Assembly (NCBI GenBank): GCA_036504735.1
Contig: DASXUQ010000009.1
Coordinates: 103,204 to 167,203 of the forward strand
From: a bacterium
GTDB taxonomy: Bacteria; Electryoneota; RPQS01
Length of the DNA: 64,000 bases
Reading direction: 5' to 3'
In this document: positions 1-16,665 of the stretch, in pieces
Layout of the letters: every line of letters starts with the position of its first letter
Position numbering within the stretch: position 1 is the stretch's first letter
Notes under the pieces: model-generated
Told to the model about the DNA's origin: nothing
The model's input: the letters and a program-made list of their open reading frames with translations, nothing else
The model's database searches: none
Program-made: the position numbers and the translations under genes

Positions 1-345
1 TCCGTCAGGCTGAGGCCGGATTCTGAGCAAATGAAGTCAAAACGGTAGATTGGCTCTAAGTCCATTGCAAGGACCGGAAGTGTCTTTGTCAAGCTGACAA
101 TTTCTTCCCTCACCTGTGCCCTATCCCCCAACGCCTGCTGTGTGAGCGATTTCTCTCTGCATGCCAGGCTGTAAGTCTGCCGGTTCTTTGATACACTGAC
201 TCGCACAACCTGCGAAGAGTGTTCATATCCATCTGCCTCAGATCTTCGCACTCACCGAGAGGAAGAACGCGGTCGACGTGAATATGATCGACACTGTGAG
301 ACATAAGACTCTGGTCTGCCCCCCATTTTGGTACCAGGTGCAATG

Positions 346-1146
346 TCACACTTTGGGGCTCTCCCTGCTTCCGGCGTAGCGGGGGAGCGGAGCCGGAAGC
401 AGGGTCAACACCGTTTTCGGCGCGGGCGGCCGGTAGCCCAGGCTGCTGTGGGGACGCTCGGTGTTGTAATGCACCCGCCACTGTTCGATCACGATCTGCG
501 CTTCTTTGACCGTATCGAAGATCTCGGTGGACAGAAAGAGCTTGAGCCTTGCGTTGTAGCTCTCGATGTAGCCGTTCTCCCAGGGACTGCCGGGGGTGAT
601 GAACAGCGTCTGCACGCCCAGCCCCGAAAGCCATTGGCAGACCAGCTTCGCCGTGAACTCCGGGCCGTTGTCGCTGCGGATGTACTCCGGAATGCCCCGC
701 TCCAGGAACAGTTCTGCCAAAAGCGCCAGGATATCGTCGGCGGTGATGCGGCACGCCACCAGGATCGCCAGGCTTTCCCGCGTGTACTCGTCCAGAATCG
801 ACAGTGCGCGGAAGGGACGGCCCCGCGCCGTCTGCCCCGTGACGAAATCGTAGCTCCACACATGGTTAACATGCTGCGGACGCAGCCGGATGCACGAGCC
901 GTCGTGTAACCATAACCGCCGCCTGCGCGGCTGCTTCCTCGGCACCTTCAGCCCCGCTTGGTGCCAGATCCGTTCTATGCGCTTGTGGTTCACTCGCCAG
1001 CCGGTCAGCCGGATCATGGCGGTGATGATGCGGTAGCCGTAGACCCCGTACTGGCCTGCCAGCGCGATCACCAGACTTTCCAGCGCATCCTCATCGTCCC
1101 GTCGCACCGGAGCATAGCGCTGCATCCGCCGCGACTGCCAAAGCAC
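346..1146 (-). CDS. IS3-family transposase OrfB (DDE/rve integrase core)
   Basis: 266 aa ORF. rve-type motifs (HSDNGPEF, SPWENGYIESYN) and a C-terminal basic tail. No own ATG context, consistent with an orfAB frameshift fusion. Confidence 0.85.
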   Translation of the reverse strand: MLWQSRRMQRYAPVRRDDEDALESLVIALAGQYGVYGYRIITAMIRLTGWRVNHKRIERIWHQAGLKVPRKQPRRRRLWLHDGSCIRLRPQHVNHVWSYDFVTGQTARGRPFRALSILDEYTRESLAILVACRITADDILALLAELFLERGIPEYIRSDNGPEFTAKLVCQWLSGLGVQTLFITPGSPWENGYIESYNARLKLFLSTEIFDTVKEAQIVIEQWRVHYNTERPHSSLGYRPPAPKTVLTLLPAPLPRYAGSRESPKV

Positions 1147-1212
1147 CCGACACCTTCTCCTCGCCCAGCGAACGGCGGACCGCCACCACGGTCTCCCGGC
1201 GCGCCGCTGGGC

Positions 1213-1497
1213 TCAGGATTTTCCCTTTAAGGCCTCGGACAGGATCTGCTTGTCCAAGGTCAACTCCGCCACCGCCCGCTTCAGGCGGCTGTTCTCCAGT
1301 TCCAGCTCTTTTAAGCGCTTGGCCTGGTCCAACTTCATCCCCCCGCACTCCCGCCGCCAGTGATAATACGTGTGCTCATGCACCCCCAGCTTGCGGCACA
1401 CCTCCCGCACCGACTTGCCTTGCCCGATCTCCACTTCCGCCTGCCGCAGCATCGGAATGATCTGCTCCGGTCGATACTCCGCCTTTGGCATAGCCAC
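1213..1497 (-). CDS. IS3-family transposase OrfA (HTH / leucine-zipper)
   Basis: 94 aa with HTH (VREVCRKLGVHEHTYYHWRR) and a C-terminal coiled-coil (LKELELENSRLKRAVAELT). Lies upstream of OrfB in the -1 frame. Confidence 0.8.
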   Translation of the reverse strand: MAMPKAEYRPEQIIPMLRQAEVEIGQGKSVREVCRKLGVHEHTYYHWRRECGGMKLDQAKRLKELELENSRLKRAVAELTLDKQILSEALKGKS

Positions 1498-1580
1498 CTC
1501 CTGCTCCCGTAATATACCACTTCTCTCTGACTTTCAAAGTGGTACCAATTCCGGGGGCTAGATCAATGCCGAGGCCTCGC

Positions 1581-1652
1581 ACTTTGGCACGTTTACGGCA
1601 CAGGAAACGCTGTCACAATCAGTCACAAGATGCAGGCTCCCCATCGCTGAGG
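1581..1652 (+). repeat. Intergenic repeat element C1 (TGGCACGTTTACGGCA core + tandem GTCACAA units + hairpin)
   Basis: About 70 nt, roughly 80% identical to 13296-13366. Contains a sigma54-like -24/-12 spacing (TGGCACG-N4-cgGCA at 1585-1600). Followed by GTCACAA-N3-GTCACAA and a GGCTCC...GGAGCC hairpin. Confidence 0.6.
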
Positions 1653-1736
1653 AGCCCGATCAGTTAGGACATTACTTTTTCAGCCGCTGACGCTTCAATA
1701 ACACCGCAGGCGGATGAGCGCGGACTGCGGCTGTAG

Positions 1737-4700
1737 TCACGGCTCCCTATTTGTTTGATGCGGTTCAACTCTCGTCGGTGGGGCTGACTGAGAACGGAGT
1801 GCCTGCTCTCTCTGCCGATTCGTCCGGACCGCACGGACTCTGAAGAAGGCCTTCGCGGGTAGGTTTGTTCGGCCCAATGCGTAATTGGAGGTGTCGGCTG
1901 ATCCAACAGTGCTCCAACCCACGAAGTCTGTGCTCATTTCAATCACATAGGAAATATCGCCGATAGGATTCCCGGAAGTATCCGTGAGCACCGGAGACCA
2001 GTCAAGTCTCACAGAATCAGGCTGCATTGTGACCACAACATCATTCACGGCACGCGGTGCAGCAACGAAAAGAACCGTCCATGTTGCCGCTGATGACATG
2101 ACTCCGCCGTGCCCATCCGTTGCGCTTACAAGGACATTGTGTATACCGGTGTCCGACAGCGCGGGGGTGAACTGGATCCACCCCGTTGAAGGTTCGACGT
2201 CAAACATGGCCGCATTGTCCGTGAACATCAGGGTATCCAAATCGATGTCATATGCTCCGACCGTCCACTCGAACATCTCGCCGACCAAGACGGTTGTGTC
2301 GGGAAGCGGATCAATTTCCGGCGAGGTGTTCGGAGTAATCGCGCTCACAGGCGCAGAATAAACCGAGCGCCCTGCCGAGTTCCAACTTCCTGCACGATAT
2401 TGGTAGGCGCGATGTCCTCGAACTGTTGAATCCATAAGGGAGACCGTGTTTGCAGGCACCGCGCCAATGTCCAAGAACGGTGCGGATTCTCCGTCCTGAC
2501 GTTGAATCACAAAACCCGATTCGTTCTGGGAGACGTCCGTCCAGTTGATTTGCACAACCGTGCTGGACTGAATCGCGGCCGTCACGCTTTGTGGAGCGCT
2601 CGGCGTGGTTTGGCTGGTTGTACTGAAATACCAGAGAGGACCTGAAGTTTGCGCCCCTTGGTTGTCTATAGCCGTCACTCTCCAGAAAATAAAGCGGCTA
2701 TTCTGCAGGCCCGACACGGCCTTAAACGTGTCAACGAGGGCGGTATCGATAACGGGAGGTACGGACGATGTCCCGAACTGCAAGCGATAATGTACCTGAT
2801 CTCCCGGGTCTTCATCGCCGCCGGAGTACCGGAGTGTCAAATCAAGTGGTTGATTGGTCGTCCCATTAAGAGGATGGGGCCGGGCCGGTACCCGTGGCGG
2901 TGTATTTCCCGTAACCACGACGACTTCATTGGAGCTTGGGGACAGATGCACGCCGTTGGATGCGTACACTCGATAAATGTGCCGTGTATTCGGGGGCAGA
3001 TTATCTAGCGTCAGCCCCGAAGAGTCCACCGACGTGACGCCGGCGATTACCCAAAGGGAATCTGAGCGGTCCTCGACCACAGTCATTACTGCCGAAGTTG
3101 GGTGGTTGCGCCAGGCTAGCCTGATTTGACTCGTGCCAAGCGGCCATCCCCTCAGGCTATCCGGTCCAGCGAGGACAGATGCCATAGTGAATTTCCAAAT
3201 AGGCCCCAGCACTGTATGATACGGATCATGGACTTCGATGCGCCAAAAATACGTTGTCCCTTCCGGAATCCCCTGTGACGCCCATGATGTGCTGTCTGTC
3301 GGGCCAGCCACATGCGTCAGGTTGATCGAGTCTGTGCCTGCCCAGACGTGGTACGACAAGTGATCAGCATCCGGATCTGTTCCCTGCCATGAAAGGATGG
3401 CCGGTGCCATCACATTAGAGGAGGCGTGCACGGGGACCGGCGCAAACGGCGGCAGGGGAGCCGCATTGGCTGGCATGATCGTCAGATAGGTCTGAGAGCT
3501 GTCTGTCACTTCGTTCCCTTGCCGGTCGCGTACTCGCACCACCACACGTGCGTTCGGGCTGGGCGCGCCCGTCGCGGTCCATAACAGGACAAAAGGAGTG
3601 TGTGCCCCCGCCGTCAGTATCTCGGGATCCGAAGAAGGAGTTCGCCGCAATAGTACATCGCATGACAGGGAATCTACCGGCGTGTAGTTGTCCGATGCTG
3701 TCCAACGGATGGTGTCGGCTTGTCCAATCACCCAATGCCCGCCTCCGTCTGGCGCCAGGAATTCTACCGTTGGCGCGCTGAGGTCGTGAATAGCAAACAC
3801 CGTTGGCGAAAGCGCCGTTCCGGTATTTCCGCCTGTATCGTGAACGATCAGCTTCATCAGGCAGGAATCGCTGCTTACGGCAGGCACAATCCAGCTTTGA
3901 GAACCTGTGTTGGCGGCCGAAGCCGCTAACAAAGTGAAGTTCCGACCCGAATTGGTCGAAAGGTAAATGTCCACTCCGGCGATGCCGATGTTGTCGGACG
4001 CTGTCCAACGCACTGTATCGGTGCATCCCATGGCTTTGATCTCGCCTCCAGTCGGGGCAAGCAATGACACCTGCGGTGGAGTGAAATCGCTGCTCAGATG
4101 GGCGGCCGAGAACTTCAGACAGTTCTCCACGGGATCGTTGTAGGCAAGATACGCAGAGTCGTCTGGCGTAATCACATACCCCAGCCTGGTACCCACGTTG
4201 CTGTTAGCCGTGAGTGATACGGCTGGACCCCACGTTACGTTATCACGGCGTCTCCATGTGAGGCGATCATTCTGTAAGAGGCTGGGCCACCCTCGGCTGT
4301 CCAGGGCAAGTGGCCCGTAGTAGATGGTGCCGGGCAGAGGTTCGATACTACCCCAGATTCCGCCCGTGCGTACACGGTATTGTGCCTGATCACCTCCCAG
4401 ACTCCGTGTACATACAAGATGTTCGGCACTATCCGCTGTGATGAGATAGTCAAAGAGATAGCCTCCGTCCACATAATAACCGGATGCCATACCGGGAATA
4501 AACGCAGCGCTTGTCCATAGCCCGCCGATGCGTGAGACCGTCGCCAACCCGTGGCCGGCAGTGGTAGAGTCCGGCGATTGATATGCAAAAAGTATCTTTG
4601 GTGATTGGCCGAGCATCTGGATCCTGACGCCGGCAACACTGGGGAATGCCCCTACTTGCTCAGTCGCCCCCCATGTTCCGCCTGACCACCGGGCTGCGCC

Positions 4701-7700
4701 TACTCGCCCCGTGGCATAGCCGGAGACGCCCCATGCGGCCCAAACATCTCCGGATGCCGTAGCTACGGCTTGTACATAATTCAGAGCAGGTTGACTGTCC
4801 AGTGAAACGGGGGCTTGCCAGCTGCTGCCGTCAAAATACCGAGCGCGGACATAGCGCATCGAATGATTGTAGTCGTTGTAGTCATAAACTACCATCGGAT
4901 GCCCGGGACTTGGTAGCACAAGAGTAGGAGAGTCACCAAGCGAATCCAGAGTGGTTTCAGAGCTCCAGTTCCCCGCCGGGCTTCGCTTCAAGTAGCGCAG
5001 CGTATAACCAGTGCCACGAGTGTATACCAGGTGCAGTGTGCCGTCGGTATCCCGCGCCATGGCTACTCGCGAGACACCACCCACCCCGCTTGCGAGGACA
5101 GCGCTCGGTGACCAGGGAGAAGGAAACTGAGTCGAGTTTGGAAGAATCCGGAACGTTCCATCGCTCCAGTCAGCCGCCTGCCCCCCGTGCCCGTCAATCG
5201 AGATATGGACTGCTATCGAGTCACCGGATGCGCTCCCCGGAACCGTCCATTGGTAACTGGTAGCCGGTGGCAGAACCAGTGAGGCAATGGTCATGTACTG
5301 TGGCGAGCCGACACCGGTATTGCTGTAATGGAGACTTGCCGATACCCAGTTCTGCGCCGTCCATTGAAGGGTATGGGTTTCTCCTACACGCCACACCTCA
5401 CCACCGTTCGGGGACAGGATCGTCACCGAGGGATTCGCAAAGTAAAGAACATGAACGCTATCGGATACCAGTGATGCGGAGTCTCCTGACACATCAATGA
5501 CAACCACCTTCAGACGTCCGGCGTCCGTCGTGTCTGCAACTGCTGGCGTCCAATCAAAGTGCAGCGACACGTCGTCATTGTAGGGTGGGGGTGTTTCTTC
5601 CCATGGACGGACAGTATGCCACGTTATTCCATTGTCCCGGCTGAAATCCCAGCGGAATCGTGCGATACCGGCCTGGTCAGACGCTTGCCCGCTCGGATGA
5701 TATGTCTGTCCGGCCTGAAACCACAGGGGCGAGTATCCCGGCATGTGTCCCCAGGACCAATAGGGATTCCCTTCAAACGTCACTAGCGGAAGATTTGTAT
5801 CCACCCAATTCACTTCATCAAGGGCGCGATTGTTCGTCAGCACCGGCTCTACCACCCCTTGAACATCGACAACGGCAATCAGGTAGCTGGTGCCAACGGT
5901 CACTTCTGGTAATCTGACCGTCTGGCTGACCACCACTGATTGTCCTATGGCCAGCGCAGGAAATACCGTCCAGCGCGGGTATAAGGCGGTACCGTTGGAT
6001 GCGGAATCCTGCGACCAGTACCAATAGACGGAACCGCCGGGCGCATCAAAATTACCGATGTTTCTGACCGTGACGGACATCGTGATACTGTCTCTGCGGC
6101 CGAACGTGCCGGTGTAGGAACAGTTGCTGGCTTGATAGTCTGGGAACTCATAGGCGGTGGTGAAACTCCACAGCGGGCTGGTCGCTATTGTTCCGGAGCC
6201 GTACGGATCCCAAGCCTTGACCTGCCAATAATATGTGCTGCCTCCCGAAAGACTATCCATGACGGCATGCGTGGTCGCGTCGCCGAACGGGCCCGTCGGG
6301 TAGAGTTCATTTGCAGACACGCCAAACCATGGCTGATACTGCAGCGCATCATTATCCGGATCAGATCCTGTCCAACTCAACACCACATGGGACCGCGAGA
6401 ACCCGGTCGCGGCATGCGCAGGTGAAGGCTGCGATGGTGACCAGGGCGGATGATTGACATGCCATCCAAAGTCAATGACATTGGACCATCCACTCTCGCC
6501 ATTGTTGTTAACCGCCTTTACGCGGAACCAGAAGTCGCCGTTGGGATGGTTGTAGAATGTGTATTCTGAGGCGCTCGTGGTCACCTGTGCCGGCGAAGAA
6601 AACGACGCGTTGTCATCCTCTTCCAGAACGTAATAGCTGACGTTGTTTGCGTTGCTCCAGTCAATAGTGTAATCAGGGTTCAGGCTGTAGAAACCGGGAT
6701 CGTTCAATTGGGGCACACCGGGACTTCCAGGAGTCCCGGTGATCATGATCTCCGTGGTGTAGGCGACATTCAGGTTGCCGGCGCCATCCTCTGCTACAAG
6801 CCGTATGGAAACCGCACCATTGAGCGTGTCTGGAACGGTCCAATCGTATGAGCCATTCACCTCTGTAGTCGCCACAAAGGGCGACAGATTGGCCATGGTC
6901 CTCCAGAACTGGGATGCCAGGCTCGACACTTGTAAAAACACACGGCGGAGCGTTCCGTTATCGCGGGCTGAAAACGGAACCGCAAGCATCTGATGAGGCT
7001 CAGCCTGGGCGTTCGCGCATACCATCGCAACCGGCGGGATATCGTCGCCATTGCAGGCTGGTGGAGCCTGAATCAATGCCTCTGTTATGACTTCGCCCTG
7101 TTCGTCAAAGCAACCCTGTCCCCATTCGATTTCCGATTGAGTGGCCTGAATCGCACTGGACCTCCGGTAGCCCATGGCGTCATAGACCGCGTCCGATTCG
7201 AACTGCCTCAACTTGCCGTGCTCCACGGCATACTTGTTGTGGGTCGGCGATTCCAGCAACGCTCCGTCCCTGAAGGAAATGCTGCCGCCCCATGGCAGAG
7301 ACGCGAGCGCGCAGCCCGGCTGCACGACTTGAGCAGAACCCCAATCATAGCCCCAGGAGCGTGCAATCGCCGGCGATGCCACGTTAAGCCGGCTCCCGTT
7401 CCTGGCCAGATAATGGTTGTTAAAGTTGTCTCCGGCGATGGTGAAGAAGGCGTCAAAAGCATCCAAGCTCACATCCGCACCGATTCCGCATCCCGATGCG
7501 CCACTTGTGTACGCCTCATACTCCGCCGTCGAAATGGTCACGATCTGGCAAGTTGCATAGCGATTGCCATTGAACACATCCATGTTGGGAATGTGGCGCA
7601 GGTGCGTACCTTCGATCACATAAATATCTGGCGAGGCCGCCTGCTTCACCAGTGTTCCGCTCGGATGCCAGGCAACTCGACCTTTCAGGTTATCCCATAA

Positions 7701-8546
7701 GTACTCATTCGTTGCCCGCGTATAGGGATCGGATCCACAACCTTGCCAGCCATATGGGTCGACAGGAATCCATCCATGGCCTGTCACGAACCGTCGTACC
7801 TCGAAATGAAGATGGGGCGCGCCAGGAGCTCCTGCATCGCCTGTGACGCCGATCTGTTGACCCTGGGTTACATGTCCTGGCTCGACCGTAATGTTTGTCA
7901 TGTGAAGATAGATTGATGCAAGCCCTGAGCCGTGATCAATCCATACTTCATGGTAGTTGCCATTGTAACCGCCGTTGGCCAGTGCATCGGTGTGCAGTGT
8001 GCCACTAGCCGCTGCATAGACTGGACTGCCGTAACCGCTCGGATGACCGTAAAGCGTGCTACGATAGTCAATCCCGGGATGCCCATTGTAACACAAGTGT
8101 TGTCTTGCAATCGTCGCGTCACCGCATTCCGCAGTCCCGCAGTAATGTCCGTTTGCAAGAAAAGCTTGCGCGTGTTCGCCTTCATAACAATCCTGGCATA
8201 CGGTTCCCCAAGTGGGGCGCGCTTCTTCACCCCACGCGTCAATAATCCGACTATCACTATCATAATCGTAGGTACACCTACCTTGAGTGCAGAGGACCGA
8301 GTGATCAAAGACGCTCACAATGGTCGCCTCGTCCGGACTCAAATTCGGGTCCAGCGGAAACCACAATCTCACCTGTCCCTGAGCCTCCACAGCTGCCAGC
8401 ATGACCAGAAGCAGGTATGCAATCCGAGTAGTGCTCTTCACGCGTGTTCTCCCATCTTCTCCCCGCAGCCATTCACGTGTATTTTGTTCAAGTGCCCGTT
8501 TTGTCTTCGAACATCGGTACCATCGCTCAACGTTCCCTTGAGGCAA
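1737..8546 (-). CDS. Giant secreted multidomain protein: N-terminal M23 peptidase domain followed by many Fn3/Ig-like and beta-propeller-like repeats
   Basis: 2269 aa ORF with an N-terminal hydrophobic segment. M23 signature (HPGIDYRS ... HLHFEVRR). Long Ser/Thr/Gly/Trp-rich repeats (WTASDN..., YxWxV Fn3-like). Confidence 0.6.
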   Translation of the reverse strand: MPQGNVERWYRCSKTKRALEQNTREWLRGEDGRTRVKSTTRIAYLLLVMLAAVEAQGQVRLWFPLDPNLSPDEATIVSVFDHSVLCTQGRCTYDYDSDSRIIDAWGEEARPTWGTVCQDCYEGEHAQAFLANGHYCGTAECGDATIARQHLCYNGHPGIDYRSTLYGHPSGYGSPVYAAASGTLHTDALANGGYNGNYHEVWIDHGSGLASIYLHMTNITVEPGHVTQGQQIGVTGDAGAPGAPHLHFEVRRFVTGHGWIPVDPYGWQGCGSDPYTRATNEYLWDNLKGRVAWHPSGTLVKQAASPDIYVIEGTHLRHIPNMDVFNGNRYATCQIVTISTAEYEAYTSGASGCGIGADVSLDAFDAFFTIAGDNFNNHYLARNGSRLNVASPAIARSWGYDWGSAQVVQPGCALASLPWGGSISFRDGALLESPTHNKYAVEHGKLRQFESDAVYDAMGYRRSSAIQATQSEIEWGQGCFDEQGEVITEALIQAPPACNGDDIPPVAMVCANAQAEPHQMLAVPFSARDNGTLRRVFLQVSSLASQFWRTMANLSPFVATTEVNGSYDWTVPDTLNGAVSIRLVAEDGAGNLNVAYTTEIMITGTPGSPGVPQLNDPGFYSLNPDYTIDWSNANNVSYYVLEEDDNASFSSPAQVTTSASEYTFYNHPNGDFWFRVKAVNNNGESGWSNVIDFGWHVNHPPWSPSQPSPAHAATGFSRSHVVLSWTGSDPDNDALQYQPWFGVSANELYPTGPFGDATTHAVMDSLSGGSTYYWQVKAWDPYGSGTIATSPLWSFTTAYEFPDYQASNCSYTGTFGRRDSITMSVTVRNIGNFDAPGGSVYWYWSQDSASNGTALYPRWTVFPALAIGQSVVVSQTVRLPEVTVGTSYLIAVVDVQGVVEPVLTNNRALDEVNWVDTNLPLVTFEGNPYWSWGHMPGYSPLWFQAGQTYHPSGQASDQAGIARFRWDFSRDNGITWHTVRPWEETPPPYNDDVSLHFDWTPAVADTTDAGRLKVVVIDVSGDSASLVSDSVHVLYFANPSVTILSPNGGEVWRVGETHTLQWTAQNWVSASLHYSNTGVGSPQYMTIASLVLPPATSYQWTVPGSASGDSIAVHISIDGHGGQAADWSDGTFRILPNSTQFPSPWSPSAVLASGVGGVSRVAMARDTDGTLHLVYTRGTGYTLRYLKRSPAGNWSSETTLDSLGDSPTLVLPSPGHPMVVYDYNDYNHSMRYVRARYFDGSSWQAPVSLDSQPALNYVQAVATASGDVWAAWGVSGYATGRVGAARWSGGTWGATEQVGAFPSVAGVRIQMLGQSPKILFAYQSPDSTTAGHGLATVSRIGGLWTSAAFIPGMASGYYVDGGYLFDYLITADSAEHLVCTRSLGGDQAQYRVRTGGIWGSIEPLPGTIYYGPLALDSRGWPSLLQNDRLTWRRRDNVTWGPAVSLTANSNVGTRLGYVITPDDSAYLAYNDPVENCLKFSAAHLSSDFTPPQVSLLAPTGGEIKAMGCTDTVRWTASDNIGIAGVDIYLSTNSGRNFTLLAASAANTGSQSWIVPAVSSDSCLMKLIVHDTGGNTGTALSPTVFAIHDLSAPTVEFLAPDGGGHWVIGQADTIRWTASDNYTPVDSLSCDVLLRRTPSSDPEILTAGAHTPFVLLWTATGAPSPNARVVVRVRDRQGNEVTDSSQTYLTIMPANAAPLPPFAPVPVHASSNVMAPAILSWQGTDPDADHLSYHVWAGTDSINLTHVAGPTDSTSWASQGIPEGTTYFWRIEVHDPYHTVLGPIWKFTMASVLAGPDSLRGWPLGTSQIRLAWRNHPTSAVMTVVEDRSDSLWVIAGVTSVDSSGLTLDNLPPNTRHIYRVYASNGVHLSPSSNEVVVVTGNTPPRVPARPHPLNGTTNQPLDLTLRYSGGDEDPGDQVHYRLQFGTSSVPPVIDTALVDTFKAVSGLQNSRFIFWRVTAIDNQGAQTSGPLWYFSTTSQTTPSAPQSVTAAIQSSTVVQINWTDVSQNESGFVIQRQDGESAPFLDIGAVPANTVSLMDSTVRGHRAYQYRAGSWNSAGRSVYSAPVSAITPNTSPEIDPLPDTTVLVGEMFEWTVGAYDIDLDTLMFTDNAAMFDVEPSTGWIQFTPALSDTGIHNVLVSATDGHGGVMSSAATWTVLFVAAPRAVNDVVVTMQPDSVRLDWSPVLTDTSGNPIGDISYVIEMSTDFVGWSTVGSADTSNYALGRTNLPAKAFFRVRAVRTNRQREQALRSQSAPPTRVEPHQTNREP

Positions 8547-8597
8547 TGATCGGTTCCGACTCGCACGCTTCGGCGCGACGATGTCCAGCAGATCATC

Positions 8598-11500
8598 TCA
8601 GTGCGAACCGGATACTACAGCCTTCACGCGGTAAAATCTCAGGTTCTCCGGCACCGCCTGCAAGCTCTCCGCAAATCCGGTTTGAGTTCCGGGCACCCTT
8701 CCAAGCAGCAGATAGGGACCGTCAATGCTGCTCGAGCCAAGAACCTCGTACTGCTGAATGACTTCCGGGCAATCGCCAATTGATCGCACCACGGGGTCCC
8801 AGTGGAGGGTCAAACCGTCACCCGCTATGGTTGCCGTGATCGGAGGCGATGCAGGAGTCCAATCCGAGCAGGGACTATCGGCGGCAATTTTCAGAACATA
8901 ATAGTCGTAGTAACCCGCGCCGTATGACTGTGTGTAGCCGGTTAACAGGAAGTCTCCATCTCGTGTTTGCAGAACGGCATTGAGTCCTTCATCGGATGGT
9001 CCACCATAAGTCCGCACCCAGAGAGTATCACCGTTCTGGTCGAGCTTGGCCAGTATCATGTCACCATTAAGGCCATTACCACCTACTAGAAAGCTGCCGT
9101 CGAAGAGCTGCTTTACACTGTTGCCGCGTCTGAACATTGGAGGCGGATACGATCTCATCCATAATGTGTCGCCGTCGGAGTTCGTCCGCACAACAAACAT
9201 CTTCCACATGTCGCCAAACGAGAACGTTTCGCCGACAATCACGTACCCGCCATCATGGGTCTCCGTGATTCCGTAGGCGCGGTCATAACTGGCTCCTCCA
9301 TATGTCCGCGTCCACAGAACATCACCCGCACCGCTGGTCTTTACGACGTACATGTCTTCAGCTCCGGCACCGAACGATCCCGTAGTTCCTGCGAAAACAT
9401 AGTCGCCACCGATTGTTTGCAGGACGGCATTGGCAACATCCATACCCCCGCCTCCATAGAAGCGGCTCCAGAGGGAATCGCCTGCCGCACTGACGCGCAC
9501 AAGTTCTGCATCGCCGCTTTGGCTCTGGCCCGCTCCAAGGTAGCCGCCGTCGTCCGTCTGAATACCCGCCCAAGCGACACCGCACGGGCCGCGCATCACT
9601 CGATTCCACATCATATCACCGGCAGCGTTAGTCTTTACGAAATACGGCCGTGATCCTCCCCAGTATCCGATCAGAATGAAGCCGCCGTCCGTGGTTTGCT
9701 GGACGGCAAACGCGGCTTCCGAATAGGGCGGGCCATTGTATCGCCGACTCCAGAGAGTGTCCCCCGCACTGTTCAACCGGATAAGCCACATGTCTTCGTC
9801 GCTGTTTCCGGGCAAGGTCGATCTTCCGGCGACCACATATCCATTGTCCGCTGTCTCATCCGCGCTCTGTGCCGCATCGTAGTTGGAAGATCCGAACGTT
9901 CGGGTCCACAGGACGCCCGGCGGCTGAATATCCGTGATCGTAAAGTCTCCGTCGGTCGTGTCCGTGAGCAGCGGATAGGAGGTCGTGGAAATCCTCACGC
10001 GAGCATGGTTGGAGACAGGTGGCGTCACCACCCAGGCGAAATTCCCGGTGTTGGGAGCAGCCGGAGTCAACACTTCCCAGGGGCCACCCGGATAACTCCG
10101 GTTCAACTCGATCATTACCGGGCAGTCCGCATACCAACTGGACCAGGTGACGCTGTGAACTTGGCCAGCATTCCACACCGTATTGGTCCAGGGTTGCTCT
10201 ATGGAAATGGCAGGTGTTGTGAAGTAGAAGTCGCTGTCGGATACCGTGTAAATTCCCGGGTAATACAGGCTGCGGATCTCGATGGACGCGCTCGCGGTAA
10301 GCGGTATTTCGTACCCCCAGGGAATCCGGATGATACAGGGTTCAGATCCATCGTTTGGAGTGCACTCCTGCAGGACTTGTGTGCCGCCGCCACCGAAATT
10401 ACTGAAGTAGTTCAGCGTGATTCGCACGTCTCCTGGAAGGTTATGGGTAGTCCAGGCGACATCGTAGGGAATCGCGGCCATCACGGTGTCGCCCGGCGCG
10501 GGACTGGTCAACTCCAACTCGGGTGCCAGAATAGTGAAGTCTGAATCCGACCAGTCGTTAATACACGATCCCTCGCCGCCGATGATCCGGATCCTTGCAT
10601 GGGAGGTGGCAGGGCCTGTAACGTACCACCAGGTTTCGCCATCATTCGGTGTTTGCAGCTCAATCGGTTCCCACTGGCCGTCCGGGTAACTTCGATTGAG
10701 TTCGATGCGGACCGGTGTCGAAGACTCCCACGCCGGATCCCAGGTAACGTGGTAAGTTCCGTTCCGTGCCACCAGCACTTCGCCGCCATTCGGTGAGATT
10801 ACTGCGGGAGCAATGATCGTGAGATCCGCATCCGAGACATCCCAAATTGTCGGATCGTAATTGCTGGTCACCTTGAACCGGGCGCGCTGAGTTGGGGGGC
10901 CAGTAACCAACCATGCGAAGAATCCGTTGTTTGGAGCATTATACGCCAGCGTCTCCCATTGACCTTCGGGGTAGCTCCGGTTCAACTCGATCCGCATCGA
11001 CTCCATGTATCCGGTGGTTGTCCACTGCACCGCCAGGCCACCGCAGGCGCCCACCTGGCTCATGGTCGGCCCCGTGACGTGAACTCCCGGCTGGTTCACC
11101 GCGATGAGGTGCTCCTTTTGCTCCTGGTCCCATCCGGCGACGTTGTGGGCGACTAGTGTTACGGTGTAATACCCTGCCACGGTATAGGTGTGGCTCGGAT
11201 TCTGGGCCATCGACGAACTCCCATCCCCGAAATACCACTCCCAAGATATCGGACTGCCTGTCGACAAATCCGTAAACTGGACATTCAAAGGTAGACTGCC
11301 CGACGTCGGATTCGCGCTGAAATCAGCCTGCGGCGCCGGAGCACCGACGTCGATCGTCATATCTCCCGTGACCGTGAACGTAGGAATAGTGACTTGCGCG
11401 CCGTTGATCACGGCATAGAATCCACTGTAGATTGAGCCGTTTACCAATTCGACCGGTGTGCCGAACCCGGTGACTGGGACTCCTGAACAATACACCCCGT

Positions 11501-12596
11501 CTTCATCACTGAGCAGGGAGGGGCCAACGAACGTGACGTTGTTCATCAGCAGGGGGATGCCGTTTTGGTACTCCACGTGTACGCTGCCGTTCACCCACCG
11601 GAAGATGCTGGTCAGACCATTCTGATAAAACATCTGTGCATGGTCCGGTGCATTCGGATCTTCATCCGTAACAGGAGCGCCGAAGTTTATCCAGCCATGA
11701 TGGTTGATCCAGTGATCCCAGAACCCCTCTTTCAAGAGGCAGACATTCCAATCCCCGACCTTGCGAATCAGTGCGGAGTACGGCAGGGTGAAATTGTTGT
11801 TGCAGCCTGAGAAGTCCTGCATGTACATGCCGTTCTGTTCATGCACGAAACGGCCCCCGGGACCATTATTCCAGGGAAAACCTAAATTATGGCTCGGATT
11901 GGCTGATTGCAATGCCTGATACTTGCTCAAAAAAGCCTGAGATATTCCATCGTTATGCCAGCCGTCCGAAAACTGCCCGACCGGGTTGGCCGCTTCGTAA
12001 TGCGTGTTCGCCGCCGGATGGTCTCGTATGAAATCCGAAGGGTCCCACCAATCGCTCAAGACACAATCGTTGGGGGAGTAACCCTCCCAAGCCCATCCAC
12101 CGTCACAGGGCATGTGATTAGCATGATCGTAGGAATCTCGATGGATACCGAAGTGAAAATGTGGATCATAGCCGCCGTTATGCTCTCGATCCGCAACATA
12201 GCCGATTACGTCTCCGCGACGGACTTGGTTAAATGGAGCGGTGGTTTTGACTTCCAAGGCAGGAGCACACAGGTGGGCATAGAGCGACACCACATGTTCC
12301 CCGGATGAAAGCAGGTGCTCGATCAAGACAATGCTGCCGTAACTATGTCCGGATTCCGCCATGCGAACGATGCCGTCAGCACACGCGTACACAGGACTTC
12401 TCACGGATAAAGCATAGTCTTCGGCCAAATGGTATTCACCGGGCGTGAGGCACTCCCCGAACCTGCCAAACTCGCACATCTGACGAGGATTACCCGTATA
12501 CGGGCTCTGAAATCCGTCTGCCACCGGAACCGTCTGTGACCAGGCACCGCTGCGGGCGGCAAGCAGGAGCATGAAAATCAGGAAGCATCGCGTCAT
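8598..12596 (-). CDS. Secreted M23 peptidase-PKD-beta-propeller repeat protein
   Basis: 1332 aa with a signal peptide (MTRCFLIFMLLLAARSGAWSQ). M23 motifs (HLAEDY..., HFHFGIH). A PKD domain (WEWYFGDGSSS...HTY). Multiple YGG..D..GY beta-propeller-type repeats. Confidence 0.6.
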   Translation of the reverse strand: MTRCFLIFMLLLAARSGAWSQTVPVADGFQSPYTGNPRQMCEFGRFGECLTPGEYHLAEDYALSVRSPVYACADGIVRMAESGHSYGSIVLIEHLLSSGEHVVSLYAHLCAPALEVKTTAPFNQVRRGDVIGYVADREHNGGYDPHFHFGIHRDSYDHANHMPCDGGWAWEGYSPNDCVLSDWWDPSDFIRDHPAANTHYEAANPVGQFSDGWHNDGISQAFLSKYQALQSANPSHNLGFPWNNGPGGRFVHEQNGMYMQDFSGCNNNFTLPYSALIRKVGDWNVCLLKEGFWDHWINHHGWINFGAPVTDEDPNAPDHAQMFYQNGLTSIFRWVNGSVHVEYQNGIPLLMNNVTFVGPSLLSDEDGVYCSGVPVTGFGTPVELVNGSIYSGFYAVINGAQVTIPTFTVTGDMTIDVGAPAPQADFSANPTSGSLPLNVQFTDLSTGSPISWEWYFGDGSSSMAQNPSHTYTVAGYYTVTLVAHNVAGWDQEQKEHLIAVNQPGVHVTGPTMSQVGACGGLAVQWTTTGYMESMRIELNRSYPEGQWETLAYNAPNNGFFAWLVTGPPTQRARFKVTSNYDPTIWDVSDADLTIIAPAVISPNGGEVLVARNGTYHVTWDPAWESSTPVRIELNRSYPDGQWEPIELQTPNDGETWWYVTGPATSHARIRIIGGEGSCINDWSDSDFTILAPELELTSPAPGDTVMAAIPYDVAWTTHNLPGDVRITLNYFSNFGGGGTQVLQECTPNDGSEPCIIRIPWGYEIPLTASASIEIRSLYYPGIYTVSDSDFYFTTPAISIEQPWTNTVWNAGQVHSVTWSSWYADCPVMIELNRSYPGGPWEVLTPAAPNTGNFAWVVTPPVSNHARVRISTTSYPLLTDTTDGDFTITDIQPPGVLWTRTFGSSNYDAAQSADETADNGYVVAGRSTLPGNSDEDMWLIRLNSAGDTLWSRRYNGPPYSEAAFAVQQTTDGGFILIGYWGGSRPYFVKTNAAGDMMWNRVMRGPCGVAWAGIQTDDGGYLGAGQSQSGDAELVRVSAAGDSLWSRFYGGGGMDVANAVLQTIGGDYVFAGTTGSFGAGAEDMYVVKTSGAGDVLWTRTYGGASYDRAYGITETHDGGYVIVGETFSFGDMWKMFVVRTNSDGDTLWMRSYPPPMFRRGNSVKQLFDGSFLVGGNGLNGDMILAKLDQNGDTLWVRTYGGPSDEGLNAVLQTRDGDFLLTGYTQSYGAGYYDYYVLKIAADSPCSDWTPASPPITATIAGDGLTLHWDPVVRSIGDCPEVIQQYEVLGSSSIDGPYLLLGRVPGTQTGFAESLQAVPENLRFYRVKAVVSGSH

Positions 12597-12995
12597 TGAA
12601 TTGGGCCTCTGTGTTACGCCAAATGCACATTATACGAGCGTACTGAGGGGAGCAGCATCAGACCGGAGTGCCAAAGCTCTTTACGTAGCCGTATTGCGGA
12701 CCACAACCAAAAGGACTGCGCGTTCGCAAACAAATAAGCGAGCCCTGCCACTGAATAGCGGAAGACTCGCTCGTCTGAAGGTGCTTGTCGGGATGAATCC
12801 TCGGTAAACCGGCATCTAATACATTCTAAGGTACTACTTCTTCAGCATGTTGTCAAGGTTTTCTATGGTCTGCAGCACTTCTGTTTGCATTCAGTATCTG
12901 CGGAAGCTTTTCTCTTCATAGGTTCTTGTCACTCGCAACTGCGCTTCCAAATCTCCTGTGCAGTAGACGACGAGTACTTTTCGCACGTCCGACTT

Positions 12996-13125
12996 GCCTT
13001 TCACAATCTCCGCAAGCAGTAAAAACAAGTACATAGAAAAGGCTCTCTCGAGATTGAGAAAGCCCCTGTGCCCACAACGTGCCACAACGCAGTCACAACG
13101 CGTCACACTTTTGTCGTGTAACATC
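12996..13125 (-). promoter_or_regulatory. Repeat element A: four phased GTTGTGRC units overlapping a sigma54-like -24/-12 core (rc TGGCACGTTGTGGGCA at 13069-13084) plus a conserved hairpin
   Basis: About 125 nt, roughly 80% identical to 16174-16295. On the minus strand it points into the 1332-aa gene (ATG at 12596, roughly 470 nt downstream). Confidence 0.45.
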
Positions 13126-13295
13126 TATATTATTGGCTGTTTGCAATCAATATTTCTTGTTCTACTCTGTAATCCAACAAATAATCTGTTTTTGTCTCTT
13201 TGACCTAAATCCAATACTTACAGATCCATGCGACATTCTCGCTACGGGTCAAGATGATTCTGTAAGTCTATATTTTGTGATGCCGAGTCCTCTCG

Positions 13296-13366
13296 ATTTG
13301 GCACATTCATGGCACAGGAAACGCTATCACATTCTGTCACAAAATACAGGCCCCCATCGCTGAACA
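13296..13366 (+). repeat. Intergenic repeat element C2 (copy of C1; TGGCACATTCATGGCA at 13299-13314)
   Basis: Alignable to 1581-1652: TTTGGCAC..GGCACAGGAAACGCT.TCACA...GTCACAA..CAGGC.CCCCATCGCTGA. Confidence 0.6.
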
Positions 13367-13517
13367 GCTTGTCCATAACCGCCCAACTTGTTATCACTTG
13401 CACATGGGGTTGGCTTCAATACCCTTGTGTCGCGGTCTGCTCGGGAACTGATTGGATGGCTTCAGACAAGAGAACTGTTACTCCTTCTTGCGAGCGCCAA
13501 AAGGATCCCAAATCGGA

Positions 13518-14081
13518 TTACCCATTCGATCCTCCTGATTCTTGCTGGGAATCCAACTTGTCACGGAAAAGGACTTCGCCGACAACGCGGAAGTATATTG
13601 TTCCGTTTTCTAAGTCACCACGTACTCCGACAGGGAACATTTCCGAGGCCCATAGCCGCACGTCTTCACCGAACGCTTTGTCTATGAATTTGCCACGGAA
13701 TGCTGCGTCATCGTCCTCGCACAGCCCTTCCATCATTTCAGAAAGCTTCAGCCCAACGACGACATCGAACTCATCACCATTCATGTATGGTGCGCGCTTT
13801 TCCGGTGAGTCCAAAGGCTGGGTGACAGGTCCGTGATAACTACGAAGCAAATCCTCCCGAAGGTGTTTGGTTTTGCTGGCAACGGACTGAGTGTTTTCCC
13901 GGATCTCATCAAATTCAACGAGTTCAGATTCAACATCGTTCATCAGTTTATGGGTTGCTTCAACGCCGGTTGTGCCAAGTAACACCAAATCTTTGGCATC
14001 TTCCAAGCTTTTCGCTTCGATGCCTTGATAAGTCGTTTCAACGCGGTAGGTTTCGATGGCTACAATGTCGTACTTGGGCAT
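13518..14081 (-). CDS. Hypothetical acidic protein, possible third gene of the AbiE-like module
   Basis: 187 aa ORF immediately downstream of the AbiEii-like gene, same strand. No recognisable motifs. Confidence 0.35.
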   Translation of the reverse strand: MPKYDIVAIETYRVETTYQGIEAKSLEDAKDLVLLGTTGVEATHKLMNDVESELVEFDEIRENTQSVASKTKHLREDLLRSYHGPVTQPLDSPEKRAPYMNGDEFDVVVGLKLSEMMEGLCEDDDAAFRGKFIDKAFGEDVRLWASEMFPVGVRGDLENGTIYFRVVGEVLFRDKLDSQQESGGSNG

Positions 14082-14177
14082 AGAGATTTTCCCGTTCGGT
14101 TCGTGTGTGCACTGATGATCGCAAGGGCTCTTTTCGTGCTAAGCATCGTGGATAATCGCTTAAACTTTCCTTGGCAT

Positions 14178-15035
14178 TTACCGCATGCCGGCCAGCAGCT
14201 CGCGAATTAATAGCAGGGCCTTCGCCAGACTATCCTCGCTGCCGAGTAGTAGTTGCTCACGGGCCATGTTCATAGCAAGCAGCATCGATCCGTCCGTGCG
14301 GGCTTCTTCAATCAGAATCCTCTCGAGTATTGTGCGAGTTGAGGTGCTCGCAAGGCTTGCAATATGTCTTCCCAGAAGCCGAGCACTGGCTTCTTCGAAT
14401 GGCCTCTCTTCGGACCAGATATCGGAGTCATCACCACGTGGATGGATTTCGGGAACATTCAAGTACTCACGCATGAGAAACAGCAAGTCCACCGCATCCT
14501 TTTCACCCCCACGCGTTTTCCGGTCCGCCCAACTGATCAGCTTCAGAATAGCCATTCCCACTGGTGAACAAACCTTGATGTCCAAGCTGGGATCGGATCG
14601 AACACGAAGGGTTACGGCGTTATCCATGGCTTCACGCATACCTACCGCCTGCATAACGAAGCCTCCATCCGGCGGCCAAGCAATGGCGCCTTTGGCGTCT
14701 TCAATGCCACCGAAAGGGATCAGGTCAACAACGGTTCCTGGGTGATGAAAGAAACGCTGGCGCTGCTTCGTGTCCTTCGTGAATTTCTTTCCGACAACCA
14801 AGGCTGACGCCATGGCCTCATAGTTCACCCAAGCCGCAACTTGCACTGAGAAGTCCACGTCTACCGTCTTCCGTCCGGTATGAATGTTGAACACGGACTG
14901 GAAGATTGCATCCCTCGCGGCGGCTCCTACCAGCATGTACTCGATGCTCAGAGGCCGAAGCACGGCGTCAAGATCCGCGATCAATCCTGCAGTTGCGGGG
15001 TCAATGGTCGCGGAGATGTCTTTCCAGATGCTCAT
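14178..15035 (-). CDS. abiEii: AbiEii/DUF1814-like nucleotidyltransferase (putative type IV TA toxin)
   Basis: 285 aa. Polbeta-type NTase motif (LVGAAARD...RKTVDVDFSV, i.e. G[GA]..R...D.DF). Overlaps the upstream HTH gene by about 35 nt, as in AbiE pairs. Confidence 0.5.
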   Translation of the reverse strand: MSIWKDISATIDPATAGLIADLDAVLRPLSIEYMLVGAAARDAIFQSVFNIHTGRKTVDVDFSVQVAAWVNYEAMASALVVGKKFTKDTKQRQRFFHHPGTVVDLIPFGGIEDAKGAIAWPPDGGFVMQAVGMREAMDNAVTLRVRSDPSLDIKVCSPVGMAILKLISWADRKTRGGEKDAVDLLFLMREYLNVPEIHPRGDDSDIWSEERPFEEASARLLGRHIASLASTSTRTILERILIEEARTDGSMLLAMNMAREQLLLGSEDSLAKALLLIRELLAGMR

Positions 15036-16095
15036 CGTAGATCAGCTTGGCGGTTTCGACATTGCGGGGATCTGGATGCGCCATCAAATCGGCGTAGATG
15101 AGCAGCGGCGGGACAATGCCGGGCACTGCGGTCTCATAGGGAAAGTCCCAGAAGAGTTCGCGTAGTTCAACATCCCCTTCAGGATGGGCCACCAGTTTGT
15201 ATTCGATCACCAGTTCTTTTACGGGACGGCGCAGATAAATGGTTGTGATGGCAGGCTTCAAGTAGCTGGTGAGTTTTGCTGCAGCGGTCTCGCCTCCCCA
15301 CAAAGCGTTGTGATGTGGCACATCGAGATTCGCCCAATCTATCGCTTTGCCGGCCCGGTATGTCCCTATCAGTTGTTTTGGCCGCAGCTGCTCCGCGTAG
15401 GCGATGATCCAGCGTTCGAAGAGCTGTGCCGTGTTGAGTAACCGGCGGCCTTGGGTCCCTGTATCTGCCAGGAAAGCTTGGCGCTGTAGTCCCTTCAACA
15501 CACGGCTGATCGTTTCCAAGCCGACATCCGCAGCCCGTGCGATCTCGCGATAGGCCGCATTCACAAGATCTGGGTTGCAGAGTAGGGTATAGATGACCTT
15601 GGTTCCTGCCGGAGTGAAAATTCCCTTCTGTGCTTTGCCAGCGTTTGCTCGCAGAGGCTTGTTCCCGTGAAGAAACAGGTAAGCTCCCGGTGCATTCAAG
15701 AAAGCATTGCCAGCGGTGTCGAGGAATTGAATGCCCAGATCACGCAGCTTCGTCGCCTGAGGTGGCGGCACATGCCGCGCAATCAACAGCGCCTGGTGCT
15801 GGACTCTACGGAATTGCTGCGTCACGCGGCCAATAACTACGTCGTTGACGTTAGGCTTCACTTCCACCCAGTAAGTCTGCAACTGGCCATTCCACTCCAG
15901 CCCCAGTTCCGCGTCGAAATCTTGATCTTTGTCTTTTCGCTCGTGGAGGGCATGCCTTATCCTTAGCCGCGCATGCACGCGCAGCGCCTCAACGGCTTCC
16001 TCGATCAAGTCCATATGCTGGGTTGCGCGATCCATGACCTGCCTGTTCGAACCTCGCGTGTTTGTAGTTATCGAACATACGAAATAATCGAACAA
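15001..16095 (-). CDS. abiEi: AbiEi-like transcriptional regulator/antitoxin (wHTH N-terminus + C-terminal domain)
   Basis: 364 aa. wHTH-like segment (AAYREIARAADVGLETISRVLKGL). Lies upstream of and overlaps the NTase gene. The assignment is based on architecture. Confidence 0.4.
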   Translation of the reverse strand: MFDYFVCSITTNTRGSNRQVMDRATQHMDLIEEAVEALRVHARLRIRHALHERKDKDQDFDAELGLEWNGQLQTYWVEVKPNVNDVVIGRVTQQFRRVQHQALLIARHVPPPQATKLRDLGIQFLDTAGNAFLNAPGAYLFLHGNKPLRANAGKAQKGIFTPAGTKVIYTLLCNPDLVNAAYREIARAADVGLETISRVLKGLQRQAFLADTGTQGRRLLNTAQLFERWIIAYAEQLRPKQLIGTYRAGKAIDWANLDVPHHNALWGGETAAAKLTSYLKPAITTIYLRRPVKELVIEYKLVAHPEGDVELRELFWDFPYETAVPGIVPPLLIYADLMAHPDPRNVETAKLIYDEHLERHLRDH

Positions 16096-16173
16096 GAGTC
16101 AAGCCTTGACCAATGTACAACCCGTAAGGCTCTTCTTGAGGTAGGACGCGGGCATTTTTGTTTCGTCCTACGC

Positions 16174-16295
16174 ACCTTTCACAAACTCCGCAAGCAGTAA
16201 AATCAAAGACATAAAGAAGGCTTTCCTGACATTGAGAAAGCACGTGTGCCCAAAACGTGCCACAACTCGGTCACAACATATCACACTTTACGCTT
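16174..16295 (-). promoter_or_regulatory. Repeat element B: copy of element A with sigma54-like core (rc TGGCACGTTTTGGGCA at 16247-16262), about 155 nt upstream of the abiEi-like start
   Basis: Four phased units (GTGCCCAAAAC GTGCCACAAC TCGGTCACAAC ATATCACAC) and a GCTTTC..GAAAGC hairpin. Preceded by the GTAGGACG...CGTCCTAC inverted repeat (16141-16171). Confidence 0.45.
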
Positions 16296-16665
16296 GTATA
16301 GTCTATAGACATAACAAATTACGAACGTCTGTCATCATTTTACTCTGGAATCGAACTTGAGTCCTTACCCTTTGTGAATCACTCTAACATCAATAGGAAC
16401 AATACCTGTAAGTATTACCCAGTTTACCCATTCTTCATAGCTAAGTTCAGTATTTTGCTCGCGGATTTTGGGGTGTTTAGGACAGAATTAGGCCACCTTT
16501 TTGGATGTCACATGGATCACAAAGTCGTTGTTTGCGGGGTTCTTGGAAGGAGATTCGGGCAGTACTTTCACAGGCAGTCGTGGCAGACTTGGCCCATATG
16601 TCGATGGCCAGCAAGGCTCGATTGATGGTCATGAAGTCGACGTTATCTTGACAGGTTCGAGCCGG

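Follow-up and report, generated by a model that had tools for sequence, protein, structure and literature searches.

Within the 64,000-nucleotide (nt) stretch of bacterial DNA analysed here (the window), two related repeats, C1 and C2, lie beyond the 3' ends of two minus-strand operons. We tentatively propose that they belong to a set of at least three copies of a composite boundary module at operon ends, here called the tail, which is paired with a second element, the head, around acquired cargo genes, and which would have been spread by recombination. This is the explanation we prefer, held at somewhat short of even confidence. The layout is supported by a third head and a third tail, which a profile search found bracketing a third, unrelated gene.

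The window is a section of Joint Genome Institute (JGI) metagenome contig Ga0376481_000051. Looking up OrfA of the IS3-family element in the window yielded 8.8 kb to its left (L043), and together these 72.8 kb of the source genome were scanned for copies; motif searches and matrix ranks cover 145.6 kb of strand (145,600 positions).

Heads and tails around three cargo units

Read along the minus strand, the order is head B, the AbiEi, AbiEii and 187-amino-acid (aa) genes and tail C2; head A, the 1332-aa and 2234-aa M23 genes and tail C1; the IS3 element; head A3, a SnoaL-like gene and tail C3; and a TetR gene. The elements are as follows, with E-values for C1, C2 and A from three-copy profiles and for C3 and A3 from the family profile search.

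1564-1664, plus strand: tail C1, truncated (101 nt), 73 nt past the stop codon of the 2269/2234-aa M23 gene, without extension or junction motif; E = 2.4e-31
13171-13376, plus strand: tail C2, full (206 nt), an 85-nt unit with a 110-nt extension, 142 nt past the stop codon of the 187-aa gene; E = 4.5e-66
L043 13168-13373: tail C3, 1.7 kb left of the window, 103 nt past the last stop codon; E = 1e-17
12963-13178, minus strand: head A, 216 nt long and preceding the 1332-aa M23 gene, with its core 17-mer at 13069-13085; E = 2.5e-59
16141-16559, minus strand: head B, 419 nt including the X arm on its upstream side, preceding AbiEi; the core 17-mer is at 16247-16263 and the junction motif at 16349-16356
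L043 11678-12096: head A3; E = 3e-34
329-1547, minus strand: IS3-family insertion sequence, inserted in a GC hairpin 17-18 nt from C1 and outside the repeat

A3 and C3, which extend the family beyond the four copies first recognised, have the same relative orientation as the others and enclose a gene for a 157-aa SnoaL-like protein. Tail position and orientation relative to operon ends are constant in the three copies, and the elements do face into the 3' ends of minus-strand operons, as had been proposed. The full heads, B and A3, are about 420 nt long and 80% identical over 416 nt, head A (216 nt) being borderline at 75–80%; the full tails of about 207 nt, C2 and C3, are 75% identical over 188 nt. 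Head and tail cores form inverted repeats of about 40 nt on either side of each cargo, and the homology runs outward past the cores.

The similarity of C1 and C2 is genuine and longer than the 65–70 nt first claimed. By blastn it covers 85 nt at 84.7% identity, with 12 substitutions and one 1-nt indel; the alignment spans 1566-1650 against 13280-13363, from ATGCCGAG to CATCGCTGA. Mean column identity is 86% in a wider alignment and 83% across the 76-nt ungapped repeat, and in the 64-kb window the two copies have nhmmer profile E-values of 1e-28 and 1e-27. The core TGGCAC-N6-GGCACAGG has four matches at up to two mismatches, against 0.39 expected, and none of 100 shuffles reached four. These matches are C1, C2 and, on the minus strand, A (13065-13084) and B (16243-16262). 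All four loci belong to one family, in the orientation originally described; the homology between A and B extends over 159 nt, whereas theirs with C1 and C2 is confined to a core of about 45 nt. The first-pass annotation had C1 directly abutting both the IS3 end at 1547 and the 3' end of the 2269-aa gene. In fact C1 begins 17–18 nt from the former, and the stop codon of the latter lies 73–87 nt away.

A small coding gene or gene fragment overlapping the repeat is an alternative that we regard as close to refuted. It would take the form of 27- or 33-codon plus-strand open reading frames (ORFs) starting from ATGCCGAG, or of a cysteine-containing minus-strand frame. One ORF does cover C2 exactly, from an ATG at 13280 to a TGA at 13363, and 8 of 13 C1/C2 substitutions fall in one codon phase. 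This bias loses significance once the choice among three phases is allowed for (about P = 0.1, a binomial estimate), and in that same ATG-to-TGA frame all changes are non-synonymous (a hand count from the translations). The 1-nt indel disrupts the frames, C3 lacks the ATG region and gene callers put no gene at the repeat. The coding reading was rejected because amino-acid identity (about 65–70%, hand count) is below the 80–85% nucleotide identity in every frame examined, and because the frames are broken.

Anatomy and conservation of the tails

On the gene strand the tail has four parts: a hairpin, a tandem heptamer, an inverted copy of the head core and, in the full copies, the 110-nt extension. 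The component sites are these.

1584-1600, plus strand: C1 core 17-mer TTGGCACGTTTACGGCA, sigma-54-like, GG-N10-GC; 9.62 bits, rank 18
13298-13314, plus strand: C2 core 17-mer TTGGCACATTCATGGCA; 9.85 bits, rank 14
1597-1611, plus strand: C1 15-nt block GGCACAGGAAACGCT, invariant in three tails, giving a second GG-N10-GC register
13311-13325, plus strand: the same invariant block GGCACAGGAAACGCT in C2, from the alignment of three tails
1612-1627, minus strand: C1 tandem heptamer, TGTGAC-TGAT-TGTGAC on the gene strand, from motif search
13326-13341, minus strand: C2 tandem heptamer, TGTGAC-AGAA-TGTGAT on the gene strand, from motif search
1629-1661, minus strand: C1 gene-strand hairpin followed by UGCAUCUUGUG, the probable intrinsic terminator of the M23 operon, from folding
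Starting at 16285 and 16521, minus strand: heptamer pairs of head B and its X arm, from motif search

The tandem units had been described as GTCACAA-N3-GTCACAA with plus-strand orientation; they are the reverse complement of a gene-strand motif that is co-oriented with the heads. Pairs of the form TGTGAY-N3-5-TGTGAY occur seven times, against about 0.1 expected (an estimate), and all seven are on the gene strand and within X arms, heads or tails. The longest invariant run in the tails is the 15-nt block (P = 0.0045 by column shuffle), in copies that are 71–80% identical.

The GGCTCC..GGAGCC hairpin noted earlier in one copy is present in C1, and also in C3, and absent from C2. On the gene strand the C1 hairpin has a folding energy of −24.6 kcal/mol (z = −4.6; 0 of 200 shuffles) and on the plus strand −15.8 kcal/mol (z = −2.0); for C3 the values are −22.3 kcal/mol (z = −2.7) and about −16 kcal/mol (z about −2). 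Both are stronger on the gene strand because the G.U pairs exist only in gene-strand RNA. The C3 hairpin is called terminator-like by a simple terminator scan; the C1 hairpin, strong but with a weak U-run, is not. The stems of C1 and C3 are conserved while their loops differ.

That the copies might be small RNA (sRNA) genes had also been suggested. In the window Rfam gave no match at gathering score, the junction had none even at E <= 1, and matches elsewhere in L043 were at chance level only; there is no conserved plus-strand structure, and the hairpin is the stronger on the gene strand. These searches gave no evidence for an sRNA gene, a known RNA family was rejected, and the tails are probably not stand-alone sRNA genes.

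The pattern of conservation also bears on a more mundane possibility, namely that the elements are functionless by-products: an ancestral promoter/terminator region duplicated, once in inverted form, during assembly of the island and now decaying. All copies lie in 18 kb of one contig, with none in the other 55 kb scanned from this genome or in the syntenic loci of two relatives; they are 71–85% identical, C1 is truncated, C2 has lost its hairpin, and public collections yielded nothing. We nevertheless consider this improbable, in view of conservation that is clustered rather than even (the invariant run, and GG and GC kept while the spacer between them varies), of stems conserved in C1 and C3 though the loops differ, of a heptamer shared, always on the same strand, by three types of element with no other homology, and of the constant placement at operon ends.

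As to the reach of the searches, profile search found no head or tail copy in the 72.8 kb of the source genome beyond the three of each, and none in the syntenic TetR/radical-SAM loci of two relatives. In public collections the shared-core pattern had 16 matches in genome contigs, 21 in metagenome contigs and one in viral contigs, all single, unrelated and attributable to chance, several of them within coding sequence; family-specific blocks had no match in viral contigs. Since this strict pattern would miss two of the six copies in the source genome itself, absence from the collections is weak evidence.

A recombinant joint between C2 and head A

The first-pass annotation had asked whether the copies mark recombination junctions, and at the joint of C2 and head A they appear to: an exchange of arms is found at the 8-nt motif GTT(C/G)GATT.

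13171-13178, minus strand: junction motif GTTGGATT, the point of change from tail-type homology (to C3) to head-type homology (to B and A3)

The homology of C2 with C3 stops at 13171 and that with the heads starts at 13178. When the four sites were anchored on the motif and compared by binned identities, the left arms fell into two kinds, B matching A3 (arm X) and the C2/A junction matching C3 (tail extension T'). Among the right arms, those of B, A3 and the C2/A junction match one another (head H'), and that of C3, which leads to TetR, is unique (Y). Cross pairs of arms show random-level identity, and the switch falls exactly at the motif, giving the combinations X-O-H' twice, T'-O-H' once and T'-O-Y once, where O is the motif. 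These combinations are what tandem site-specific insertion would leave, although deletion between two 8-bp repeats could give the same. With three heads, three tails and a recombinant joint, the elements do look like pieces spread by recombination, as an earlier suggestion of mobile-element parts had it.

A stronger version would make recombination the function of the elements. Heads and tails would be the arms of site-specific recombination sites, and cassettes consisting of motif, head, cargo, tail, extension and motif would be excised and integrated at the 8-bp sequence; a recombinase or its accessory proteins would bind, as arm-type sites, the GGCAC pairs (inverted, 87 and 121 nt either side of the C2/A core) and the TGTGAY pairs. 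The arms switch exactly at the motif, as they would for an attL, a tandem joint and an attR; the heptamers are strictly oriented; cargo units occur elsewhere without heads or tails; and the island also includes both a tyrosine recombinase and an HTH_17 Xis-like gene. At the C2/A joint, and there only, GTTGGAT also fits the integron core GTTRRRY, the other copies reading GTTCGAT. Yet there are only four joints, the reciprocal product was never seen, C1 lacks the motif and the two-repeat deletion could yield the same pattern. The only tyrosine recombinase is 14 kb away and generic Xer-like; with 68 bits on TIGR02249, against a cut-off of 265, it is not an integron integrase. The motif has no inverted core-type repeats beside it, and inspection by eye of the tail extension sequences revealed neither the inverse core RYYYAAC nor a palindrome. 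A further copy of the motif, at 16093 and perhaps there by coincidence, overlaps a sigma-70-like promoter. A cassette-exchange system of a kind not described before and distinct from integrons, in which promoter-bearing cassettes integrate tandemly at GTT(C/G)GATT with oriented TGTGAY and inverted GGCAC pairs as arm sites, seems to us doubtful. If it were real, each captured gene would be supplied at once with a regulated promoter, with a terminator and with an inward-facing site for insulation.

Two other origins were set aside. The motif is T-loop-like (GTTCGATTC), but a tRNA-derived attachment site was rejected, as ARAGORN found no tRNA in the window and the flanking stem is unpaired. Deletion mediated by the IS3 element is an unlikely cause of the truncation of C1, given that the two flanks of the element reconstitute one GC hairpin. 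The element splits that hairpin into GCCCCC and GGGGGC, with flanking triplets TTT and ATT and no clean 3-bp target duplication, and it is single-copy as far as the look-up reached. A blastn search with the junction gave no match among plasmids and phages.

A possible boundary function and the points against it

Returning to the tail as an operon-end boundary module, we envisage that the hairpin would terminate the operon, and that the heptamer pair and the GGCAC pair are putative protein-binding sites. The heptamers would probably bind one regulator shared with the heads, for which a fused HTH/M78 regulator encoded at 17875-19005 and AbiEi would be candidates; the core, which faces back into the operon, would probably bind RNA polymerase holoenzyme, of an atypical sigma-54 type, or another factor. 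Jointly these parts could form a boundary opposing transcription across cassette borders, through a roadblock by the bound complex or through convergent antisense transcription. The shared heads and tails, together with the short motif at the outer edge, may then allow cassettes to be added or exchanged by recombination.

Several observations weigh against this proposal. Three full tail copies and one fragment are known, the three of them in one 18-kb stretch, and with so few copies in so short a stretch, local duplication could explain much of the tail conservation. Termination is not universal, there being no hairpin in C2 (z = 0.07), and the 110-nt extension ending in GTT(C/G)GATT, present in C2 and C3, is missing together with its motif from C1. 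Neither the reciprocal joint (X-motif-Y) nor an empty site was found in the relatives searched, where only the TetR-proximal 110 nt is conserved, and no regulator or recombinase could be tied to the motifs.

The core raises a further difficulty. The GG-N10-GC spacing is kept in all six cores while the spacer varies, GGCA(C/T) is likewise present in all six, and TGGCAC in four, C3 having TGGCAT and A3 CGGCAC. We scored the cores with a sigma-54 matrix built from 135 E. coli sites bound in chromatin immunoprecipitation sequencing (PMC4591121). In the bound sites the base before the GC of the −12 element is T in 127, C in seven, A in one and G in none (PMC4591121); in the cores it is G in six of six, and the TGC element is thus lacking throughout. 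By this matrix from a distant organism the cores score 4.8–9.9 bits, at or below the fifth percentile of real sites (9.7 bits in leave-one-out; median 13.9), and rank 14th to 244th of the 145,600 positions, inseparable from background. The only protein seen with a sigma-54 interaction domain (60700-62496, plus strand) lacks GAFTGA.

The suggestion that C1 and C2 are candidate sigma-54 promoters is weakened by these results. As a rival to the boundary module it would have the repeats act as stand-alone −24/−12 promoters firing on the plus strand, to give antisense RNA to the operon 3' end or a short sRNA ending at the hairpin, and we judge this unlikely, though somewhat less so than the alternatives above. 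The intact spacing around a variable spacer is as expected, and with the single G changed to T in silico head A would rank third and the other five cores first, at 12–17 bits. Homologous head cores sit 212–590 nt upstream of operons, where promoters are expected. In the tails the second register, (C/T)GGCAC-AGGAAA-CGCT, coincides with the invariant block at the same spacing and is absent from the heads. Starts are predicted about 11 nt past the −12 GCA, near 1611 and 13325 for the first register and near 1622 and 13336 for the second. In E. coli, moreover, the sites occupied in vivo include 8 intergenic-antisense and 27 intragenic-antisense ones, for which a role in antisense regulation has been put forward (PMC4591121). 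Besides the G before the −12 GC and the low scores, the rival has to contend with the lack of any Rfam match or conserved plus-strand fold, with a plus-strand hairpin that is weaker, has no adjacent U-run and is missing in C2, and with the failure to find a true activator nearby. Binding of sigma-54 holoenzyme to the cores is a conjecture that we grade as plausible but unproven, since a match that is otherwise near-perfect is unlikely to be accidental and yet a family-wide G is unprecedented among the bound E. coli sites.

Because GAFTGA is absent, the sigma-54-interaction-domain protein was rejected as support for sigma-54. This AAA+ protein of 598 aa has ..ELHGTRTRVG.. in place of GAFTGA, and two long acidic D/E tracts that are visible as DNA repeats. 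No RpoN family match was obtained among the ORFs submitted to Pfam and NCBIfam, which were part of those in about 73 kb of the genome. A fifth TGGCAC-N6-GGCA site, also with G before GC, lies at 37937-37952 on the minus strand, in sense orientation inside an ORC/CDC6-like gene; this is within chance expectation.

If the boundary module is real, these would be compact natural plug-in gene units, with a toxin-antitoxin pair, giant secreted peptidases and a small enzyme-like protein set in the same head and tail. They would illustrate the domestication of foreign genes in a lineage about which little is known, offer a test case for binding of a sigma-54-type site with GGC at −12 and hint at a cassette-exchange route that may be new. 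Should the elements be no more than decaying duplicates, the finding is an ordinary one.

Heads, cargo and neighbourhood

Directly after the GGCACA core each head carries a 9-bp hairpin (A, 13041-13064, minus strand; B, 16220-16241, minus strand; A3, L043 about 11990-12020, plus strand), whose pairing survives three compensatory double changes: 92.6% of cells are paired, against 44–59% in slid controls. A U-rich run follows, and in head B the structure is classed as terminator-like. The start site predicted for a sigma-54 promoter falls within the hairpin, which would therefore stop incoming transcripts and not those started in the head; this is compatible with a possible insulating design. 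An X arm of about 210 nt, 80% identical between copies, lies upstream of heads B (16349-16559, minus strand) and A3 (L043 11678-11888, plus strand), with a TGTGAY pair of its own and a conserved stem AATAC/GTATT around a variable loop.

Each head also has a short ORF beginning M-x-L-[IF]-L-L-[LF]-A-E-[FI]-V-K-G and then diverging, of 47, 14 and 28 codons, which could be a leader peptide or the relic of a gene 5' end. The AbiE operon probably has a promoter of its own in a sigma-70-like site, TTGACT-17-TATGTT (16074-16102, minus strand), at the 3' edge of head B; the extra junction-motif copy that this site overlaps has the same left context (GACTCttGTTCGATT).

12891-13034, minus strand: short ORF of head A
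About 16168-16212, minus strand: short ORF of head B
L043 about 12010-12095, plus strand: short ORF of head A3
1737-12596, minus strand: cargo unit 2, two giant M23-peptidase/Ig-repeat genes (1737-8441 or 8546; 8598-12596), from domain and ORF calls
13518-16035, minus strand: cargo unit 3, AbiEi (15001-16035), AbiEii (14178-15035) and the 187-aa gene (13518-14081), from domain and ORF calls

The cargo operons were probably acquired horizontally, as suggested by SnoaL homologues at 70–75% identity that are proteobacterial, by the GC content of the M23 operon (56–57%, where most of the window to the right of it has about 50%) and by the 187-aa gene (minus strand), for which a collection of 5.8 billion protein clusters holds no homologue but itself. 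Comparison with related loci shows the cargo to be separable from heads and tails. A relative at 82.5% nucleotide identity (L050) has the SnoaL gene, about 155 nt upstream of it and a terminator in the same place, with neither head nor tail, and its resemblance to the source breaks off within the terminator hairpin, at the beginning of the tail. In a locus from a third metagenome (L053), the first 95 nt of the X arm are joined directly to the SnoaL 5' region, with no head. A locus from another metagenome (L051; 89% nucleotide identity) keeps the gene-tail junction and the first 64 nt of the tail up to the contig end, a partial fourth copy. L053 and a further locus, L052, end about 65 nt after the gene, too short to reveal a tail.

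Judged from a flanking radical-SAM enzyme whose nearest named relative is in a Calditrichota metagenome-assembled genome (75%), and from type IX secretion system (T9SS) sorting domains present in relatives, the source is an uncultured organism of the Fibrobacteres-Chlorobi-Bacteroidetes (FCB) group, of a Calditrichota-like lineage. The Logan contigs of SRR11794808 are 100% identical to the window and so allow no strain comparison, and the NCBI record of the metagenome-assembled genome contains no locus separate from the window.

About 130–175 nt past the C3 motif, between the end of the array and the TetR promoter, L043 has a canonical terminator, GCAGCCCCT-ATCA-AGGGGCTG followed by TTTTAT (about 13500-13545, plus strand). 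The TetR promoter is sigma-70-like (TTGCAT-17-TATATT) and is conserved in a relative (L045). On the other side of the array a dense defence or mobile island occupies 19332-48645. It encodes a GAP1-N1/DO-GTPase/GASH/GAAD-metallophosphatase system, ThyX, an AAA_15/21 ATPase, ORC-CDC6-like and HD-CE proteins, AIPR, DUF4420, Z1, HATPase_c_3, a Dcm methylase, the Xer-like integrase (30863-31972) and the HTH_17 Xis-like gene.

Comparison with known systems

A limited literature search found no description of a matching head-plus-tail arrangement. Integron attC sites are 60–140 nt long, with an R''/L''-L'/R' palindrome and the core GTTRRRY. Integron cassette arrays resemble the present one in their tandem unrelated cassettes, in a border motif that here fits GTTRRRY once and in recombinant joints; they differ in that no IntI was found nearby and no such palindrome is present here, and in that each cassette has a large promoter-like head and a terminator, with conserved flanks of 200–400 nt rather than the length of an attC. 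In lambda-type att sites, direct-repeat protein-binding sites are found in arms flanking a short crossover core, and in Acinetobacter plasmids the pdif modules, with sites of opposite orientation at their borders, contain toxin-antitoxin or accessory genes. The likeness lies in repeated sites in tail and head arms on either side of a short motif, and in modules with accessory genes. However, no cognate recombinase and no inverted core-type half-sites were found here, and the GGCAC arms are direct repeats, unlike Xer half-sites. Transposons and miniature inverted-repeat transposable elements have inverted repeats at their ends, target-site duplications and copies dispersed in unrelated contexts. 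Here the head and tail cores are inverted around each cargo, the homology extends outward past them and the copies are not dispersed in the 73 kb scanned.

The inner edge of C1 and C3 is like an intrinsic (Rho-independent) terminator: on the gene strand, a U-rich run comes after a GC-rich hairpin of about 11 bp. In the relative L050 the equivalent position is taken by a textbook terminator. The best-conserved part of the tail, however, lies beyond the terminator, the hairpin is absent from C2 and the U-run of C1 is weak. With sigma-54 promoters and antisense sites (PMC4591121) the cores share TGGCAC at −24, GC at −12 and the exact GG-N10-GC spacing; they depart from these in having GGC instead of TGC at −12 in every core and scores within background, and no activator or rpoN was identified in the part of the genome scanned. 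In E. coli, binding of holoenzyme in its inactive form at antisense sites or away from promoters is common (PMC4591121).

Putative mobile promoters have been defined as non-coding stretches of 50–100 nt that are homologous, with at least 80% identity, and precede non-homologous genes of a single genome, and their spread through recombination, inverted-repeat-linked elements or horizontal transfer has been proposed (PMC3488235). Heads B and A3, at 80% over 416 nt, reach this level of identity, and head A is at 75–80%; the tails, being downstream of operons and facing inward, are not promoters of the adjacent gene and fall outside the definition (PMC3488235). The pairing of head and tail round each cargo, with a terminator and a junction motif, is absent from that survey (PMC3488235). 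Putative mobile promoters are thus the closest described concept for the heads, with B and A3 fitting it, A a borderline case and the tails sharing their core (PMC3488235).

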